From NCBI GenBank assembly GCA_013043705.1, contig JABDNS010000049.1, positions 1 to 55,992 of the forward strand: 55,992 nucleotides of DNA, read 5' to 3'. Position numbers and translations under genes: made by a program. Below, in pieces: positions 2-8,052 of this stretch; the first letter of the stretch is position 1; each line of letters opens with the position of its first letter. The notes below the pieces were generated by a model, which was not told the DNA's origin, searched no databases, and saw only the letters and a list, made by a program, of their open reading frames with translations. Origin of the DNA: Pseudomonadales bacterium. GTDB taxonomy: Bacteria; Pseudomonadota; Gammaproteobacteria; Pseudomonadales; UBA7434.

Positions 2-421
2 AGCGACGTTTTTAACAGCGATACACAGCTAGCTGGCGCGGTATTTATTTTGCGTTATCGCACGCAAGATTTTGCGGCGAACTTCAAATCCCCGGGTTTC
101 GCGATCACCAAGTTATCGGGCGACCCCAATTTGCAGCTCAGCTGGCAATCGAATGACATCGGCCCGGATCACGGCGAGCTCGTTATTACACTGCGTAACC
201 CGCATGGATTTTCGGTGTTGGGCGCGCAGATGTCTAGCGCCAGCAAGCAAAGCCTGTTCGAAGACCTGTCATCAATAGCTATAGGCTGGTTATCGCATAA
301 CTATCGTGGTGAAGCGCCACTGCCGTTTACCTGGTCATCACCACCCATGTATTTCGATGTGCATGGTAATGTTGTAGAGGGCTTGAGCGCGAATATGCAC
401 GCGGGCGGCAGAAGCGGCTAA
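2..421 (+). CDS. Hypothetical protein, 5'-truncated by window edge; possible cohesin-like beta-sandwich
   Basis: Frame is open from base 2 (SDVFNSDTQLAGAVFILRY...) to TAA at 421. Alternating beta-strand pattern with LAGAVFILRY, GELVITLRNPHGF and FDVHGNVV segments. Confidence 0.5.
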   Translation, partial: SDVFNSDTQLAGAVFILRYRTQDFAANFKSPGFAITKLSGDPNLQLSWQSNDIGPDHGELVITLRNPHGFSVLGAQMSSASKQSLFEDLSSIAIGWLSHNYRGEAPLPFTWSSPPMYFDVHGNVVEGLSANMHAGGRSG

Positions 422-465
422 GCCAGGCGCGGCGCCTGGAGTTAAACAATGCAAAGGAATGCGAC

Positions 466-3450
466 ATGAACCGAGCTAATGGAATCCCCGCGCCGCGCAC
501 CGGCGTAGCGTTGAAGCGCGCCGAAGTGAAGCTTGCAAGCATCGCTGTTTTGATGGCAGCGATTTTACTTTGCGCAACGGTTGCACTTGCGCTTTGTACT
601 TTGGTGCCGCCGGCAAACGCCGGTCAAGCAGCGCAGGCAATGTCGGCTTTGATAGGCGCGGAGCGCTTCTTGCTCGGTGAATCAACGCCTACGCCGGAGC
701 AGCGCGTGAATTGGGATATTGCCCCGAACGGAGGCGATGGCCAGCTTAACTGGGCTGATGTTTCGCATATACAGCAGCGCCTGCTGAATGGCGTGCCGCT
801 GCTTAATGCGCTGCAGGCAGTCCCGCTCAGGCAAGACAGCGTGGCCACACGCCACGAGTACACCTGGCATGGCGAAGCGGGGCGGTCACCGCTGGCCTCG
901 CATACCGAGTCGCTACAATATCCGGGCAAACCTGTAGCGCTACAACGCTTTTATGATCGTCGCGGCAATTTGATAAAAACGGTTAACGCTGCAGGCCTCG
1001 TAACGCGCCTTGAAAACTACAATACCAACGGCCAGCCGCAGTCCATTACCGAAATTGACGGTACCGTAACGAAGTTGCAATATCACCCCCGCGGCTGGCT
1101 GCTGCGAAGTACGCTAGAACACCCCGACAACAGCGCCAATAATTTAACTACAAGCTATCGCTACGATGACACTGGCAAGCTCAATCGCGTGGTTTTCCCC
1201 AGCGGCAGGTACATCGATTACTTGCATGATGCGCGTGGCGAACTGGTCGCCATGCGCGACGCAGGTGGCCAGCAAATAAATTACCAGCTTGATGCCGCGG
1301 GTAATCGTGTTGTGGAGTCGTTGTGCACGCGTACGGAGCTCGCTTCCGAAGTGGATATAAGCCCGGTAACAGATATTGGCTGCATCGAACATTTTCGATT
1401 GTTGCGCTTGCACGACGGCAATAACCGACTGCGGCGCAACATAGATGGCCGCGGTGCACGAAGTAACTTTGAATACGATGACAACGGCCGGCTGCTAAGT
1501 ATCGAAAATGCTAGCGGGCATAAAGATCAAACTGCGTACAATGCATTGGAGCAGCTTATATCGCTTGCTCACGTACCGGCACAAGATACGCCGCCAAGCG
1601 GACAAGCAGCCAGCGAGCCAGTGGCCTTTCACTATCGCACTGACGACGCGCTGCTAGGCATTGACGCGCCCGGCGACAGTACCGATTACCTGGTCGATGC
1701 CTATAGTAGCGTGGTGCAAAGCAGTAGCGAGGCACATGGCGTTTCGCAGTTTGGCTTCGATGTGGCTGGCAACCAGGTTACGGCGGTTGATGCTGAAGGC
1801 AGGCAGCAGGTATTTCACTACGACGCGCTAAACCGCCTTGTGCGGGTGCAGGTTCCGGGCGAGCCCGATGCGCAAATTGATTACTTGTTTGGTGCGCAAG
1901 GGGTGGATGCGCATGCTGCAGGGCGCCTTGTTTATATACGCGATGGCAGTGGTTCAATTCAGCACACCTACGACTTTGCCGGCAGGCTGGCAAGACGCAA
2001 TATTCAAATTGGCGATCAGGAATATCCCATCAAGTATTTTTACGATGCCGATGGCCAGCTCACCGGCGTGGATTATCCGGGCATCCGCGAGCTGCGCTAT
2101 ACGCTTAATGCGTCGGGCGAGGTCCGTGAAATACGCCTGGATGACCAGCTTCTTGCCACCGAAATAAGCTATCTGCCGTTTGGTCCGCCTCGCTCAGTCA
2201 GCCTGGCAAACGGAATTACACGCAAAAGCATTTATGCACTGGATTACACCTTAACGGCTGTAGAAGATATCGGCGTCAATTTCCGGGCAACGCAGAGCTT
2301 TAATTTTGACGCGGTAGGAAACCTGCTCACGCTTAGCCGAACGGGGGTGGCGCCAGAGCAATGGCATTTCGCATACGATTCAAAATCGCGCCTGACGCAT
2401 GCCAGCGATGCATCGGGCAGCATCAATTTCGCTTATGACAGCGCGGGGAATCGCTTATCGCGTAAACGGCTTGATAGCGATGGTGCCGCGGTTGAGTTGA
2501 ATACTTATGCTTACGCTGACAACGGCAATCGATTGTCTTCCGTACAAAGCAGCATTGGTGGCAGCGGGCAGCTCGCGTTTGGCTACGATGCGAGTGGCAA
2601 GCTGCTTTCAAGGTCGGGGGCTGGCAACGCAAACGTTGAGCTTGTTTATAACGGTTTTGGCCGGGTGAAAACAGCAATAGTGGCGAACGAGGTTGTGGCA
2701 CGCTTTAGCTACAATGCATTGGGGCAGCGTGTAAGTAAATTAACTGATGGGGCATTGTGGCATTTTATCTACGATGAAACAGGCCGTTTGTTGGGGCGTA
2801 TAGATATTTTGGGCGCGCAGTCAATCTGGTACGTTTATCTTCAAGACCAGCGCATAGCGCGTATCATCGGCGCGAATGGCGACACCGCTGTCGAGTTTTA
2901 CCACAATGATCATTTGGGTCGCCCCTGGGCGTTGAGTAATGCGAGTGGCGAGCTGGTGTGGCAAGCCAGCTACGCGCCTTTTGGCAATAGAACCGTCAAG
3001 GTCGAGAATACCTTGCCGCAATGGCTTGGTTTGCCTGGTCAGCTGTACGACCGGGAATCCGGTTTTTGGTATAACTATCAGCGTGACTACGATAGCGATT
3101 CCGGGCGCTACCTGCAGGGGGATCCGCTGGGCGTGCAGGGTGGGCTCAACACTTATATGTATGCTGGCGCCAATCCGCTGCGTTTTACGGATCCGTATGG
3201 TTTGTTTTTTTTCGGGCCGGTTTGTGGCTCGGGCGCCAGCGCACGCTTTGTTCCCGACGGGCGATTCACTGATGCTTGCCAAAAGCACGACGACTGCTAC
3301 GGCGGTTGTGGCAACAGCAAAGAGCAGTGCGACCTGAATCTATGTACGGATGGTGCTTGCCTGTACGGTTTTATGTTATCTACGGTGTTTTCTGGTGCCT
3401 CCGGTAACGCGTTTGATGATGCGCAAAAGGGATGTGACGATTGTGAGTGA
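466..3450 (+). CDS. Secreted Rhs/YD-repeat toxin (C-terminal shell half) with dockerin-like N-module and PLA2-like C-terminal tip
   Basis: Signal peptide ending PANA-GQ. Many YDxxGxL repeats. Rhs core LPGQLYDRESGFWYNYQRDYD..GRYLQGDPLG..NPLRFTDPYGL. 81-aa tip containing DACQKHDDCY. Confidence 0.92.
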   Translation: MNRANGIPAPRTGVALKRAEVKLASIAVLMAAILLCATVALALCTLVPPANAGQAAQAMSALIGAERFLLGESTPTPEQRVNWDIAPNGGDGQLNWADVSHIQQRLLNGVPLLNALQAVPLRQDSVATRHEYTWHGEAGRSPLASHTESLQYPGKPVALQRFYDRRGNLIKTVNAAGLVTRLENYNTNGQPQSITEIDGTVTKLQYHPRGWLLRSTLEHPDNSANNLTTSYRYDDTGKLNRVVFPSGRYIDYLHDARGELVAMRDAGGQQINYQLDAAGNRVVESLCTRTELASEVDISPVTDIGCIEHFRLLRLHDGNNRLRRNIDGRGARSNFEYDDNGRLLSIENASGHKDQTAYNALEQLISLAHVPAQDTPPSGQAASEPVAFHYRTDDALLGIDAPGDSTDYLVDAYSSVVQSSSEAHGVSQFGFDVAGNQVTAVDAEGRQQVFHYDALNRLVRVQVPGEPDAQIDYLFGAQGVDAHAAGRLVYIRDGSGSIQHTYDFAGRLARRNIQIGDQEYPIKYFYDADGQLTGVDYPGIRELRYTLNASGEVREIRLDDQLLATEISYLPFGPPRSVSLANGITRKSIYALDYTLTAVEDIGVNFRATQSFNFDAVGNLLTLSRTGVAPEQWHFAYDSKSRLTHASDASGSINFAYDSAGNRLSRKRLDSDGAAVELNTYAYADNGNRLSSVQSSIGGSGQLAFGYDASGKLLSRSGAGNANVELVYNGFGRVKTAIVANEVVARFSYNALGQRVSKLTDGALWHFIYDETGRLLGRIDILGAQSIWYVYLQDQRIARIIGANGDTAVEFYHNDHLGRPWALSNASGELVWQASYAPFGNRTVKVENTLPQWLGLPGQLYDRESGFWYNYQRDYDSDSGRYLQGDPLGVQGGLNTYMYAGANPLRFTDPYGLFFFGPVCGSGASARFVPDGRFTDACQKHDDCYGGCGNSKEQCDLNLCTDGACLYGFMLSTVFSGASGNAFDDAQKGCDDCE

Positions 3451-3814
3451 TCTGTTCAGGGATAAATTACTTAGCCGATTTATGCGGCTACTGGCTGGCA
3501 CACTGGCGCTAATTTATCTTTTTGGTTTTGGCTGGTCACCGCCTGGTGGCGCTTACTCGTTGCTATATATATTTCTTGTCGTTGCATTTGTGCACCGCGG
3601 CGTTCGCCCCAATCGTGGCCTTTACCCTGGAGCATACTTCTCATTAACAGCGCTGGCTGCGCTGCTGGTAATGCTAGAGCAGGGCCAGCTGGCTATAACG
3701 CAGTTCTACGGGCGGCCAAATATGCCGATGTCGATAGCGTTTGCAGCCTTTTGCCTTCTCGCTTATGACTTACGCCAGTTTTTCTTGCACCGCGGTGATA
3801 GAGAATTAATTTAA
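3443..3814 (+). CDS. Putative membrane immunity protein
   Basis: In-frame GTG at 3443 overlaps the Rhs stop by 8 nt, with AAGGGA upstream. About four hydrophobic segments. Directly follows the toxin tip. Confidence 0.6.
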   Translation: MSDLFRDKLLSRFMRLLAGTLALIYLFGFGWSPPGGAYSLLYIFLVVAFVHRGVRPNRGLYPGAYFSLTALAALLVMLEQGQLAITQFYGRPNMPMSIAFAAFCLLAYDLRQFFLHRGDRELI

Positions 3815-3829
3815 AACGGAGATCTAGCT

Positions 3830-5863
3830 ATGCAACATGGAACGTTGCTTCGCACAATAATACAAACCTTAACTCAATATTTTTACATTGCGGCAGTCCC
3901 AATTGTTCGCCGCGCTTACTCGGTCATTTTTTTACTCGCGAGCATAATCTCAAGCACAGCGGCCGGCGCCGGGCAGTCGCCGGTTTGGGGCTATCAAATG
4001 CATCGTGGCAACGGCGATATCAAGGTTTTTTCCGATGCTTCAAGCGCAGCCAGTTTTGCTTGCGCCAGCCTGATAAATGCATCCAATAGTGCAGTGGTGT
4101 CGGTGAGCCAAAGCTCGATTAACCTCATTGTCAGTTGCAGTTACGACGACGTTAATGGTGACCCGTCATTTGGTAATGGAGCTCTTGCTGTCTGGGGCGC
4201 AATTTGCCCCGTAGGTACTATATATAATGGTTACAGATGTGAAGGCTTTGACGAAAATAAAAAGCGGCCTTGCCCGGATCCCAGTTCGGGCAACCCCATC
4301 CAAACTTTAACGGGCCACAAAATACAGCGTGAGCCAGATATTGTTAGCAGTTCACCGGGTGGTATCGGGTTCGAGCGGATCTTCGATAGCCGCGCGGCCT
4401 TTGCAAATGGCACCACGCTGGGGCCAAACTGGCGTCATAGTTTCGATGCTGTATTAAAGTTCGTTTATCGGCCGATAGCGGGCATCAGCGGTCCGGTATT
4501 TCTGCCTAACTGTTCGACAATAACCGATGTGCGCAATGATGTGCATGGCTTCAGCCGGCAGGGCGAGTGCCCAGCGTCGGTGCTGCAATCTAATCCGGAT
4601 CTGGAATTGTACTCTGTGGTTCTCGAACGCCCTGGTGCCGGCGCTAGCTATTTCTATGAACAAGACGGGCGCTGGCTCGCCGATGCAGATGGTGTTGAAA
4701 TGCTGGTGCCGCTTAATATCGCTAGCGATAGCGATGTAATTGTTGGCGGTGATGGCAACAATGAGAATACTAGCGGCGCCAATACGAACCCGAACATCTA
4801 CGCGCACCATAGAGCCACAACCCACTGGCAGTATCGTCACCTATCAGGTTTGACGGAGATCTATCACGATACGGGCCGACTATTGCAGCGCACTAAAAAG
4901 GGCATGCATTTTCAATTGCAATATGATCTTACGGCTGAACAGGGTGGCGACAATAATAGCTCCACGCTCGACTTGATAACAACACCAGCACAAGAATCGC
5001 TAACACTGTATTACCATGAGGGCTTGCTAAGCAAGGTGGTCGATACCCAGGGCGCGGTGTACCGTTATTTTTTTAGCAATGAAAACACTACTGTCCGGCC
5101 AGGATTACTGGTGCACGTAAGCTATCCGGATCAAAGCCCCGGGCAACCGGGAGAGAACCCCTGGGGTGAAGACAATCCTTATCGAAGTTATCACTATGAA
5201 AGTGACAGTGCGCCAACCTACCTAACTGGTATTACCGACGAAAATCGCGTTCGCTACGTAAGCTGGGACTACGATATCAAGCGTCGCGCTATATTATCGC
5301 GGCGCAAGGGACAGGCGGGGCAGCCAGATGAAGTTGTACAGCTCGACTTCACTCATCTTTATGATCCACGAAATCCGCGCGTTATTGAAACGAACCCGCA
5401 TGGCAAAAAAACAATTTTTCATTTTGTTGCAATTGACGACTCCCGGCGCGTGGCACGCGTAGAAGGATTGTTGCATGTGAATAGCGACGCGCCGGAAATT
5501 GGTTGTGAGGCGAGCGAACAGCACTACAGTTACGATACTCACGGCAGGCTGAGAACGGTTACAGATTGGGAGGGGAATGTTACCCAATACCAGCGGGATG
5601 GGCGTGGGCGTGAAATACAGCGCAGCGAAGGCTTATGGTGGCACGCAGGCGTAGTTGGGGGGTTGTTGCAAGGCTACGAGCAGGCGCTGGTTACCTCCAC
5701 CCGTTGGCATCCGGATTTGGCACAGCCAGCGCGCCGCAGTGATTCGCAGCTAGTAACCGATTGGCAGTACGATTGTTCAACCGGTTTGCTGTTGGCGGAG
5801 CGAAAATACCCACTTGGCAGCGAGCCTGTGTACCCTGCAGAAACCTGCCCAGCAAGCGACTGA
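3830..5863 (+). CDS. Secreted DUF6531 / YD-repeat protein (Rhs N-terminal shell half)
   Basis: GGAG RBS. Signal-like segment ending AGA-GQ. DUF6531-type motif GNPIQTLTGHKIQREPD..FERIFDS..LGPNWRHSF. YD repeats (YLTGITDEN, YSYDTHGRL..TDWEGNVT). No Rhs core or DPxGL. Confidence 0.88.
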   Translation: MQHGTLLRTIIQTLTQYFYIAAVPIVRRAYSVIFLLASIISSTAAGAGQSPVWGYQMHRGNGDIKVFSDASSAASFACASLINASNSAVVSVSQSSINLIVSCSYDDVNGDPSFGNGALAVWGAICPVGTIYNGYRCEGFDENKKRPCPDPSSGNPIQTLTGHKIQREPDIVSSSPGGIGFERIFDSRAAFANGTTLGPNWRHSFDAVLKFVYRPIAGISGPVFLPNCSTITDVRNDVHGFSRQGECPASVLQSNPDLELYSVVLERPGAGASYFYEQDGRWLADADGVEMLVPLNIASDSDVIVGGDGNNENTSGANTNPNIYAHHRATTHWQYRHLSGLTEIYHDTGRLLQRTKKGMHFQLQYDLTAEQGGDNNSSTLDLITTPAQESLTLYYHEGLLSKVVDTQGAVYRYFFSNENTTVRPGLLVHVSYPDQSPGQPGENPWGEDNPYRSYHYESDSAPTYLTGITDENRVRYVSWDYDIKRRAILSRRKGQAGQPDEVVQLDFTHLYDPRNPRVIETNPHGKKTIFHFVAIDDSRRVARVEGLLHVNSDAPEIGCEASEQHYSYDTHGRLRTVTDWEGNVTQYQRDGRGREIQRSEGLWWHAGVVGGLLQGYEQALVTSTRWHPDLAQPARRSDSQLVTDWQYDCSTGLLLAERKYPLGSEPVYPAETCPASD

Positions 5864-5901
5864 GACAGGCACCCAAGCGGGGGCAGGCGCCCAGCCAGCT
5901 A

Positions 5902-5944
5902 TTTTCATTTGCACATTTATCATATATAATAATGCATATGAAAA
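5902..5944 (+). promoter_or_regulatory. Sigma70 promoter overlapped by an inverted-repeat operator for the TA operon
   Basis: TTTTCA (5902-07), 17 bp, TATAAT (5925-30). Inverted repeat TTTTCATTTGCA (5902-13) / TGCATATGAAAA (5933-44), 11/12 match. Confidence 0.7.
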
Positions 5945-6330
5945 ATAAACAAAATATCGCCACAGCGCGCCTGGAAACACCAGATGATGCGGTATTGCTC
6001 GCTGGTGCCACGCTGGCCGCAGCCGAGGCCCTGGGGTTGAAGCGCGCGCAGTTAGCCGCAATTTTGGGCATATCGGAACCCACGCTATCGCGTATCAAGC
6101 GTGGCAGCTATGGCATCCCCGATGGCAAACCCCTCGAGCTGGCGCTGCTGCTGGTGCGTGTTTATCGAGCGCTGTATGCTATGGTTGGCGGCGATAACGC
6201 GTCAATGCAACATTGGATTGCCACGCCCAATAACCATCTCGGTGGCGCGTCTCCCGCTGAGCTTATGCGTTCAGTGCAGGGTATTGCGCAGGTGGTGCAC
6301 TATCTCGATGCTATTCGTGGCAGCGTTTAG
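5938..6330 (+). CDS. Xre/MbcA/ParS-family antitoxin (HTH plus C-terminal toxin-binding domain)
   Basis: HTH LGLKRAQLAAILGISEPTLSR. C-terminal WIATPNNHLGGASPAELM..G..QVVHYLDA. Immediately upstream of a RES gene. Confidence 0.88.
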   Translation: MKNKQNIATARLETPDDAVLLAGATLAAAEALGLKRAQLAAILGISEPTLSRIKRGSYGIPDGKPLELALLLVRVYRALYAMVGGDNASMQHWIATPNNHLGGASPAELMRSVQGIAQVVHYLDAIRGSV

Positions 6331-6345
6331 GGCCGGCTGCCAAGG

Positions 6346-7167
6346 TTGCCTGCGTTGACGCGATCAAGCCCCCAAACACTGCTTGCAGCAAACGTTAATC
6401 GCTTCAATTTCGCTACATTGCAGCAGCGCCTGGCGCGCACAACCTGGCGCGTTGTCGAGACGCAGGAAATTGCAGCCACCCAGGCAATCACCCAAAATGC
6501 TGCCGATCAAGCGCGGCTTGAGGCATTGCTTGAAGCGTCAAAGCCTGCCTTGGCAGAAGATTGCGCGGGGCTATCCTACTTGCTGTTCACCCCTTTTCGT
6601 TACCCGCCGCTGCCTTTCGGTTCGCGCTTCGGCGGGCAGTTCGAGCGCGGTATTTACTACGCGGCGCTGACACCTGAGGCGGCGTTCGCGGAATGTGCGC
6701 TGTATTTGTGGTTATTCCAGCAAGGTCCGCAAGAGCTTGGCCCGTTGGCGAATATCCGCGACCAGCGCACTGCGTTTTCTGCGCGTATTCGTAGCGCACG
6801 TGCGATAGATACCTGTAGCGAGCATTTCAGCCGGGTAAGCAAGAAAATCAGCGATCCGGCCAGCTGGGAGTTTTCGCAAAAGCTTGGCGCGGCATTGCGC
6901 GAGGTACGCACCGCTTATTGCCTGTACGCCTCACCTCGGTTAGCTGGCGCCACAAATGTGGCGGTGTTCGACCCTAAAAGTTTTGCCGACAAGGCTCCGC
7001 GCGAAATCCAGCACTGGCATTTGGCGTTGGATACTGAGCGCTGTCGATTTTCCAGGAGAGGATTCGACGGCAGCCAGACGATTGAATTTGAATATAGCCA
7101 GTTTACAAAGAACGGCCGCATTCCGCATCCGGCTATGCATAAAAATGCATGGCATGAAGATGCATGA
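6346..7167 (+). CDS. RES-domain toxin (NAD+ phosphorylase / ART-like family)
   Basis: WRVVETQ, LLFTPFRYPPL..GSRFG, GIYYAA..AFAE, SQKLG..LR, YASPR and NVAVF motifs. Start codon uncertain. Confidence 0.88.
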   Translation: MPALTRSSPQTLLAANVNRFNFATLQQRLARTTWRVVETQEIAATQAITQNAADQARLEALLEASKPALAEDCAGLSYLLFTPFRYPPLPFGSRFGGQFERGIYYAALTPEAAFAECALYLWLFQQGPQELGPLANIRDQRTAFSARIRSARAIDTCSEHFSRVSKKISDPASWEFSQKLGAALREVRTAYCLYASPRLAGATNVAVFDPKSFADKAPREIQHWHLALDTERCRFSRRGFDGSQTIEFEYSQFTKNGRIPHPAMHKNAWHEDA

Positions 7168-7209
7168 CAGCGCTTTATAAATAAAAAAGTTGTTGTGGCA
7201 GGCCTGCGG

Positions 7210-8052
7210 CTAAGACTCGATAAACCGCATAGACAGGTCGATTGCACGCAGGTGTTTGGTGAGTGCGCCAACCGAAATGAAATCTACGCCTGTTTCGGCA
7301 ACCTCGCGAATATTGGCCAGGCTCATGCTGCCCGATGCTTCAAGTTTTGCGCGCCCTTGGTTTTGCTGGACCGCTTTGCGCATATCGGCTAGCGAAAAAT
7401 CATCCAGCATAATAATGTCTGCACCGGCCTCTAGTGCCTTTGCAAACTCGGCACTATTTTCCACTTCAATTTCAACCCGTTTATCTGGCTCCAGTTGGCG
7501 GGCTCGCGCTATCGCCGCACTAATTGAGCCACAGGCGGCAATATGGTTTTCCTTAATAAGGTAGGCATCGTAGAGGCCAATGCGATGGTTGCTGCAGCCG
7601 CCACATTGCACTGCATACTTTTGCGCAATACGCAGACCGGGCAGCGTTTTTCGCGTATCCAATACCCTGGTTTTGGTGCCGGCAACGGCGTCGGCGTAAC
7701 TGCGACTTATGGTCGCGGTGCCGCTAAGTAGCTGTAGAAAGTTAAGCGCGGTACGCTCAGCGGTAAGAATCGATCGGGCATTGCCGGTTGCAGTAAACAA
7801 TGTATCGCCGGCGTTCACACTATCGCCATCCTCTACAGAAAATTCGAGCTCGACGCTAGAATCGATATGCAAAAACGTAGACTCCACCCAGGCGCGGCCG
7901 CAAATAACTGCCGGTTCCCTAACAATTACGCGCGTGGCATAAACTTTATCGGCATCGATTAGCGCGGCGCTAATATCGCCGTCGCCGATATCTTCGGCCA
8001 GTGCCTGTTCCACATTATCTTGAATGGCTTGTTGTAACTGCAATTCCTGCAT
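7210..8052 (-). CDS. nadC: Nicotinate-nucleotide diphosphorylase (carboxylating)
   Basis: [51 protein letters not shown]. Confidence 0.97.

Follow-up and report, generated by a model that had tools for sequence, protein, structure and literature searches.

Can the capsule of an Rhs toxin be built from two separately exported proteins? Rhs capsules are usually described as single chains with a variable C-terminal toxin, the BC pair of the Tc toxins being the known exception. The question is raised by a locus at the start of contig C21 (GenBank JABDNS010000049.1) in a metagenome-assembled genome of a Pseudomonadales bacterium (GCA_013043705.1; 136 contigs, 2.68 Mb, 94.7% complete). The first 55,992 bases of this contig are the stretch analysed here, hereafter called the window. 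Three consecutive open reading frames (ORFs) lie on its plus strand, at 466-3450, 3350/3416-3814 and 3830-5863. The first, the C-half, carries the later part of an Rhs protein, and the third, the N-half, carries the earlier part. The two genes probably encode complementary halves of a functional two-chain Rhs/YD capsule, that is, a binary Rhs toxin. Their features are as follows.

466-3450, + strand: C-half gene, 994 residues, with signal peptide, short head, later YD shell, Rhs core and toxin tip
466-621, + strand: predicted Sec signal peptide of the C-half, residues 1-52, ending ANA before GQ (by hydropathy)
817-2895, + strand: YD-repeat shell of the C-half, residues 118-810 (RHS_repeat, E 2.5e-48)
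2896-3204, + strand: Rhs-associated core, residues 811-913, ending DPYGL (PF03527, TIGR03696)
3205-3447, + strand: toxin tip, residues 914-994 (81 residues), Cys-rich, with ACQKHDDCY, phospholipase A2 (PLA2)-like
3416-3814, + strand: immunity candidate with four hydrophobic segments, start uncertain (3350, 3416/3419 or 3479)
3830-5863, + strand: N-half gene, 677 residues, with signal peptide, Cys-rich head, DUF6531 plug, early YD shell and Cys tail
4289-4459, + strand: DUF6531, residues 154-210, matching the RhsA plug region (Pfam, E 2.2e-8)
4817-5767, + strand: YD-repeat shell of the N-half, residues 330-646, aligning to the first shell third of full-length Rhs proteins
5768-5860, + strand: C-terminal tail of the N-half, YDCSTG...P.Y..ETC, with the last strand at about residues 653-664 (alignment A2)

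DUF6531 and the first third of the shell lie on the 677-residue protein and the rest on the 994-residue protein, and neither chain holds both. The shell repeats of the C-half match PF05593 (RHS_repeat) as listed and TIGR01643 at E 1.2e-35. Its core matches PF03527 (RHS) at residues 811-843 (E 4e-11) and TIGR03696 (Rhs_assc_core of NCBIfam) at residues 836-913 (E 3.8e-19). The core ends in DPYGL (residues 909-913), a predicted self-cleavage motif of the DPxGL type in which D909 and G912 are invariant and L913 nearly so in alignment A4. DUF6531 was not found on the C-half with Pfam or NCBIfam, and Pfam found no Rhs core on the N-half, where PF05593 gave a single match at residues 568-597 (E 5.4e-7). 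Both genes are preceded by Shine-Dalgarno-like sequences, AGGA 7-8 nucleotides before the ATG of the C-half and GGAG 8 nucleotides upstream of that of the N-half. Each protein also begins with a predicted signal peptide. That of the C-half has a basic n-region, a hydrophobic stretch at residues 19-50 and an A-x-A site, and that of the N-half has a hydrophobic stretch at residues 25-47 after RR, as judged by hydropathy. A sequence-only reading of this DNA had assigned these domains and signal-like segments to 466-3450 and 3830-5863, and all of them were found there.

The plug assignment of the N-half derives from the match of positions 114-312 of profile A1 to residues 240-465 of RhsA (7q97), whose plug spans residues 268-386 according to the available text of PMC8765631. 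The same portion of that paper places the N-terminal self-cleavage site of RhsA at P305, within the plug. In the window DUF6531 starts GNPIQTLTGHK (4289-4330, residues 154-167). N155 and P156 are invariant or nearly so over 44 stand-alone N-halves, and the residue after Gly varies, being H in the window, Q in the related genome G015 and E in the related genome G013. An AlphaFold2 model of the N-half, built on a 44-row alignment, consists mostly of beta hairpins, with a mean predicted local distance difference test score (pLDDT) of 79.2 and values of 85-96 in the shell hairpins. Its best PDB matches by Foldseek are type VI secretion system (T6SS) Rhs shells, teneurins and Tc BC chains, with E values down to 1.3e-15. 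The TM-scores of the isolated model are low (0.13-0.24), as expected for half a spiral, and the matches show an Rhs-type sheet rather than the position of the break.

Do the two proteins together make up one shell? When the halves of the window, G015 and G013 were aligned to 15 full-length DUF6531-Rhs proteins, the N-half and the C-half mapped collinearly and without overlap, always in that order. For instance, on P0006 residues 153-650 of the window N-half fall on 302-686 and residues 118-913 of its C-half on 701-1424. The G013 N-half ends at 589 of P0014 and its C-half begins at 593, the corresponding positions on P0002 are 543 and 549, and the G015 halves meet on P0008 at 607 and 614. Wherever both alignments reach the junction (P0002, P0006, P0008 and P0014), the gap is 3-15 residues, and the earlier suggestion that the two ends are consecutive segments of one protein is borne out. 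Identity to the closest fused relatives is 22-35% for the N-half and 26-32% for the C-half. Furthermore, the C-half profile matches residues 568-1317 of RhsA (7q97) with E 2.9e-110. Since the plug is on the N-half and the C-half has no DUF6531, the C-half alone would be open at that end.

A model of the complex is consistent with this division. Residues 152-677 of the N-half and 118-588 of the C-half, each supplied with an alignment of our own making, gave scores of 0.83, 0.83 and 0.81, and the best of three controls scored 0.00. Among solved complexes 58 of 80 attain this mark, and among mismatched pairs 2 of 110, counts that apply only roughly to alignments of our own. At least 91% of contacts are common to the runs, and the partner pLDDT is at least 77. 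In the model, N-half residues 653-664 would pair with C-half residues 123-132, with the closest contacts between 654-657 and 128-130, and loops spaced about every 20 residues along N-half 355-641 would meet C-half 138-414. Such contacts would be expected if a continuous YD spiral were cut between two hairpins, and the predicted junction strands are those named from the sequence alone. As single-chain Rhs and TcB-TcC shells have been solved, the success of the model may show likeness to them rather than binding.

Is the break point a peculiarity of one genome? A phmmer scan of 1.84 billion representatives with the N-half returned 3698 hits, the best 150 of which were re-aligned. Among these, 113 end within 45 residues of the end point of the window N-half, and the remainder comprise 23 fused proteins, 5 fragments and 9 other or unclear cases. 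All but two of the stand-alone proteins (111 of 113) begin with M, and their median length is 554 residues. At their C-termini is a common motif, TEWHPDFRLPTKITEP..V.DFTYD..GRLL or similar, with 5-25 residues after it. Ten of them, the window included, carry the tail YDC..G...P.Y..P.C with two invariant Cys, which are C649 and C673 in alignment A2. In a FastTree phylogeny of 124 of the 150 rows (26 were left out for short coverage), the starred clade that includes the window has 14 rows, every one of them split. The division of the gene is widespread and conserved, and is not a sign of decay. A word-index search for relatives near the N-half in length found only 9 proteins. The names that such proteins bear in databases are generic, such as 'DUF6531 domain-containing protein, partial' or 'YD repeat-containing protein', and pairs named in this way could pass for broken genes. 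In the portion seen of a Bathymodiolus symbiont paper, truncated YD genes are named only as annotation problems.

The surroundings of such genes were surveyed in 78 loci, found with alignment A3 of the main clade, the window's own clade being too divergent for a locus survey. The loci therefore represent relatives of P0038 rather than of the Cys-tail clade, and their hosts include Methylococcaceae, Thiobacillus, Nitrosomonas, Sedimenticola and others. In 42 loci the protein is fused, with both reference segments consecutive within one ORF, and in 19 the N-half and part of the C-half share an ORF. Seven loci have one or more stand-alone N-halves followed by a C-half, three have a stand-alone N-half with no intact C-half start in view, and seven run off the contig or are unclear. 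Tandem N-halves occur in four of the seven split loci, four of them before one C-half in L019, L029 and L032, and two in L022. Every N-half and C-half examined at these loci starts with a signal-like segment, and the C-halves begin their repeats right after it with a motif of the type SYTY...G....DGPRTD. Within one locus the N-halves are 74-90% identical over the last 100 columns, 40-53% over the next 100 and 9-20% over the first ~130. DUF6531 was present in 9 of the 10 tandem N-halves scanned, and the heads that precede it in these 10 matched no Pfam family. In classical Rhs loci it is the toxin end that varies, whereas these N-halves differ in front and resemble one another at the end next to the C-half. 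Either a shared docking surface or gene conversion would account for the similar ends. The idea that the two halves can be exchanged independently, which had been raised from the window sequence, gains support from these loci.

Two further break points recur among the 78 loci. One lies just before the core (L034, L037, L046, L047 and L089). There a shell ORF of 1240-1320 residues ends near C-half reference position 815-841 and is followed by 1-4 ORFs, each with a core and tip behind 200-650 further residues. The other was seen in L036, L052, L054, L056, L059, L067, L073, L078, L080 and L084, mostly from Methylobacter or other Methylococcaceae. In these loci one ORF comprises the N-half and ~190 residues of the C-half and ends near C-half reference position 357-365, from which further ORFs continue. 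By extrapolation from aligned ranges, this break would lie roughly at the TcB/TcC boundary.

Which known system does a split shell most resemble? The nearest analogue is TcB/TcC (TcdB2-TccC3, YenB-YenC2), in which two separately encoded proteins form one hollow YD-repeat cocoon, a precedent for a heterodimeric YD cocoon. The second Tc protein carries the aspartyl-protease core and a variable toxin inside the cocoon, as described in the accessible part of PMC8765631. The profiles of both halves match Tc BC chains, C-half profile positions 432-787 aligning to residues 241-664 of TccC2 and positions 495-787 to residues 327-690 of YenC2. Extrapolated from these ranges, residue 1 of TccC2 and YenC2 corresponds to about C-half profile position 230, and the shell of the C-half starts at about 35. 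The break studied here thus lies ~200 positions before the Tc break, which makes an independent fission likely, on extrapolation rather than superposition. Furthermore, the N-half has DUF6531 and RHS_repeat as its only Pfam domains, with none of the SpvB or propeller parts of Tc B proteins; TcA was not searched for. Both halves carry predicted Sec signal peptides, unlike the Tc subunits, which are not known to have them. The several alternative N-halves per C-half in relatives are another difference from TcB/TcC.

Read as N then C, the locus has the same order as single-chain, Sec-type DUF6531 Rhs or WapA-like toxins, namely head, DUF6531, YD shell, core, tip and immunity gene. It differs from them in that the shell is cut at a fixed point into two exported polypeptides and that the order is permuted in the lineage of the window. 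Each half also has an acquired part, a signal peptide and head on the C-half and a tail on the N-half. The best sequence and fold matches of both halves are the T6SS Rhs effectors (RhsA of P. protegens, Rhs1 of P. laumondii, Tse5 and Tse15), the N-half model matching 8qjb with E 1.3e-15. These effectors differ in that PAAR and TssC were not found here and that the halves carry predicted signal peptides, which T6SS cargo does not use. In full-text searches that reach few subscription papers and no supplements, no description was found of an Rhs shell split at this point, of dual signal peptides or of tandem N-halves. Papers retrieved for 'heterodimeric Rhs' concern toxin-immunity pairs and not split shells.

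What would such a capsule carry? The tip of the C-half holds 10 Cys in 81 residues and is shared by five relatives, at 83% identity in the related genome G009, 58% in P0177, 40% in P0105, 38% in P0254 and 32% in P0190. Secreted PLA2 enzymes have a Cys-rich fold whose catalytic His-Asp pair sits in a C..HD.CY motif, and the window has ACQKHDDCY. The motif AC(Q/R)KHD.CY is kept in all four tips compared (window, G009, P0254 and P0190), and P0254 and P0190 carry precomputed PLA2 Pfam matches. A search of the tip against PDB sequences gave 0 matches. The ORF at 3416-3814 may encode the immunity protein, as its position suggests. Its hydrophobic segments fall at residues 44-62, 65-85, 93-116 and 124-141 of the frame starting at 3350 (by hydropathy), it matches no Pfam family, and it is 38% identical to the G009 ORF at the same place. 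A membrane immunity protein would suit a lipase toxin. As 15 nucleotides separate this ORF from the N-half, the three genes are spaced closely enough that they could form one operon.

The heads of the two proteins gave little in family searches. Residues 45-152 of the N-half have a weak match to SsgA as their sole Pfam hit (E 0.11), and residues 50-130 of the C-half have none. Dockerin_1 scored 20.1 bits on the C-half head of G015, under the cut-off of 22.9, the C-half relative P0177 has a precomputed Dockerin_1 match, and other relatives carry carbohydrate-binding families. Long extra N-terminal regions between the signal peptide and the first shell repeat occur in some C-halves, ~900 residues in L029 (10399-16089) and ~700 in L020 (11182-15849). 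Together with the Dockerin_1 and carbohydrate-binding families, they indicate that the head of the C-half is also variable.

How would two such chains leave the cell? The sequence-only reading had seen no PAAR gene in the window. PAAR (PF05488) and TssC/VipB (PF05943) were not found in the 94.7%-complete genome either; VgrG and Eag were not searched for. The genome encodes four secretins and three GspF-type genes (six domain matches), two of the three sharing contigs with a secretin. In 4 of the 78 loci (L020, L022, L087 and L089) clusters of type II secretion system (T2SS) genes, GspC, D, E, F, G and K, are no more than 10 kb away from the Rhs genes, in L020 (1-9124) and L022 (3618-9033) directly upstream on the opposite strand. 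This adjacency is more than we would expect by chance, though the number is small and the loci are not independent. At L081, a gene for an AAA_22 ATPase lies directly upstream.

A precedent comes from Xanthomonas perforans, whose Rhs-family bacteriocin Bcn-A is found in the supernatant and lost in an xpsD mutant, according to the accessible text of PMC7259588. Bcn-A resembles the present system as an antibacterial toxin of the Rhs family in a Gram-negative bacterium that is independent of the T6SS and dependent on the T2SS secretin. In the portion of the same paper that was available, activity needs ORFA, ORF2 and ORF4. ORF4 comprises 290 residues and resembles WapA, RhsA and Tc proteins, and a membrane-predicted immunity ORF is last in the locus. 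As ORFA is a 1398-residue shell protein, any split there would be near the core and not after the first third. In that part of the paper the authors do not read the locus as a split shell, and Bcn-A is likened here by description only. On the same footing, the recurrent break just before the core may correspond to the ORFA/ORF4 layout. The failure to find PAAR or TssC, the secretins and GspF genes, the T2SS adjacency and the Bcn-A precedent point to Sec plus T2SS as the most likely export route, in which we have moderate confidence.

How might the parts then work together? The N-half would contribute the DUF6531 plug and roughly the first 500 shell residues, preceded by a variable Cys-rich head and a signal peptide of its own. 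The C-half would contribute its own signal peptide, a short head, the remaining ~700 shell residues, the aspartyl-protease core up to DPYGL and the 81-residue PLA2-like tip. Both chains would cross the inner membrane by Sec, and in the periplasm the last strand of the N-half (~653-664) would join its edge to that of the first C-half strand (~123-132). The loops of neighbouring spiral turns would lock, the shell would close around the self-cleaved tip, and the capsule would exit the cell via the T2SS. The N-half head may pick the target and the tip may attack membrane phospholipid, the predicted four-transmembrane protein encoded between the halves protecting the producer. More tentatively, and with somewhat less than an even chance of being right, the system may be widespread and combinatorial, one C-half being capped by any of several separately exported N-halves with a common docking end and different heads, such that one toxin is aimed at several targets. 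The split may then allow a large capsule to be made and released via Sec and the T2SS, and either gene order would work.

Many bacteria, most of them uncultured members of the Gamma- and Betaproteobacteria, encode such a capsule as two proteins, both predicted to be exported, with the division at a single fixed position, and at some loci it is the front half that varies and has multiplied. Should the two chains assemble, they would represent a second, independent origin of a two-chain YD cocoon and a natural system for swapping the front of a capsule while keeping its toxin. They would also provide a lead on the release of T6SS-independent Rhs toxins in Gram-negative bacteria, which is still poorly understood.

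Is the reversed order part of the system? The family of the window (21 genomes, one genus) contains 7 genomes that match at E 1e-15 or better, and related species retain both ORFs at 35-58% identity. In G009 the upstream gene is followed by an intact 1039-residue C-half, the immunity homologue and the N-half, as in the window; the C-half is 47-52% identical, its tip 83%, and the N-half 51-58%. A second G009 contig carries the N-half tail, an Xre/RES pair and nadC. G015 also has the gene order of the window, and G017 encodes a 655-residue N-half whose DNA is 99.3% identical to that of G015. At the same nadC site, G013 has an N-half of 640 residues, a gap of 53 nucleotides, a C-half of 1093 residues in another frame and an ankyrin ORF; each half has a hydrophobic N-terminus, that of the C-half being lipobox-like. 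G016 has a fused form of 1609 residues, and G047, from another family of the same order, has an N-half of 616 residues followed by a C-half of 1144. The order C-half, immunity gene, N-half was found in 0 of the 78 loci from other species. With N before C in G013, a species of the same genus, the reversed order is a rearrangement within one lineage. Of the expectation that this three-gene arrangement would prove conserved, the split has held up while the order has not, and reversal is a local feature rather than one of the system.

Three other explanations of the locus have to be weighed. An artefact of metagenome assembly or binning is extremely unlikely as the source of the arrangement. In favour of one, the window starts with the first base of its contig, and Rhs repeats are a frequent cause of broken assemblies. 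However, Logan contigs from other runs span 56-5727, 3440-3930, 3612-3903, 4802-7300 and 5559-6700 and bridge both junctions with no indels or joints, a 5672-nucleotide contig covering 56-5727 with six base differences and zero gaps. The covering runs number four (X1, X2, X5 and X8) from three studies, all of beach sand metagenomes; the best-matching run may be the source sample, and not all four are therefore independent. G015, on a contig of 879 kb, and G009 share the upstream gene and the gene order, and nadC follows the locus in all of them. The arrangement is correctly assembled, which disposes of the earlier worry about misassembly. There is a small chance, greater than that of an artefact, that the ORFs are remains of a rearranged single-chain Rhs gene (e.g. 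through tandem duplication and two deletions), with at least the N-half being lost. A duplication followed by deletions would produce the order C, immunity, N, the tree shows frequent switches between fused and split states, and broken copies exist: the G015 C-half has two frame changes within ~100 nucleotides (decay or assembly error), G043 and G025 hold pieces, and G005 has, besides an N-half at a contig end, a 121-residue tail remnant elsewhere. Against such decay, both ORFs are intact in the window and in G009 at just 47-58% identity, a signal peptide and head have been added to the C-half, a conserved tail with two invariant Cys closes the N-half, and Shine-Dalgarno-like sequences precede both genes. 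Moreover, 113 of the best 150 representatives end at the same point, and the ratio of non-synonymous to synonymous substitution (dN/dS) between the G015 and G017 N-halves is ~0.21, a value resting on just 14 differences (8 synonymous and 6 non-synonymous sites).

Somewhat less improbable, yet still unlikely, is that the halves do not assemble, the C-half being a self-sufficient short Rhs toxin and the N-half a separate exported protein (adhesin or decoy) or a stored cassette with a 3' end used in recombination. Stand-alone C-half-like proteins of 845-1320 residues without DUF6531 are indeed common and occur in named isolates too, and conserved 3' ends in tandem arrays would also suit recombination. 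G017 and G005 each have an N-half for which the query used detected no C-half, both loci being cut off by contig ends. On the other hand, the C-half has no plug domain of the kind that closes known shells, fused relatives hold the same two segments in one polypeptide with no spare repeats, and the tandem N-halves are complete ORFs with signal peptides directly before one C-half. The junction strands of the complex model also hold up against its controls, with the reservation that the model may reflect likeness to solved shells. The binary capsule remains the probable explanation. The broken copies, the N-halves lacking a detectable C-half and the narrow basis of the dN/dS value all count against it, as do several further points. 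Fused forms are scattered on the tree, with at least 15 state changes, 6 of them forced by starred branches. Such interconversion suggests that the two forms are interchangeable, and equally that fission is easy and may not always be adaptive. The near-identical 3' ends of tandem N-halves could stem from gene conversion or recombination, as in classical Rhs orphan modules. The signal peptides were judged by a hydropathy window and by eye rather than by a trained predictor, the tip matches PLA2G12 at E 3.5e-4 and 21 bits, below the Pfam cut-off of 34 bits, the T2SS adjacency is rare (4 of 78 loci) and was not seen in the window, and no RNA runs holding the stretch were listed.

The flanks of the locus contain two further elements. 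Upstream lies one partial gene.

2-421, + strand: 3' end of a conserved upstream gene, whose full length in relatives is ~350 residues with a lipobox-like N-terminus

This ORF shares 41% identity with the end of the 350-residue ORF that immediately precedes the G015 C-half, and 60% with its counterpart in G009. The ~350-residue gene matches no Pfam family, and an Atlas search gave scores below 0.9. The lipobox-like protein adjoins the C-half on its upstream side in G000, G009 and G015, the reversed-order genomes that show this flank (window 2-421; L014 13204-14256; L100 2704-3687), and sits where other genomes have the N-half. No copy was found in G013 or at any further split locus that was searched.

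Between the N-half and nadC (5761-7167), the window encodes an Xre-type antitoxin (Xre_MbcA_ParS_C, E 4.6e-17, with an Xre-like helix-turn-helix) paired with a RES-domain toxin (E 1.3e-20). Searches by tblastn gave no Xre or RES homologues in the G015, G017 and G013 loci. The pair is also present in G009, at 70-74% identity, and in the window a promoter-like site lies at 5902-5930.

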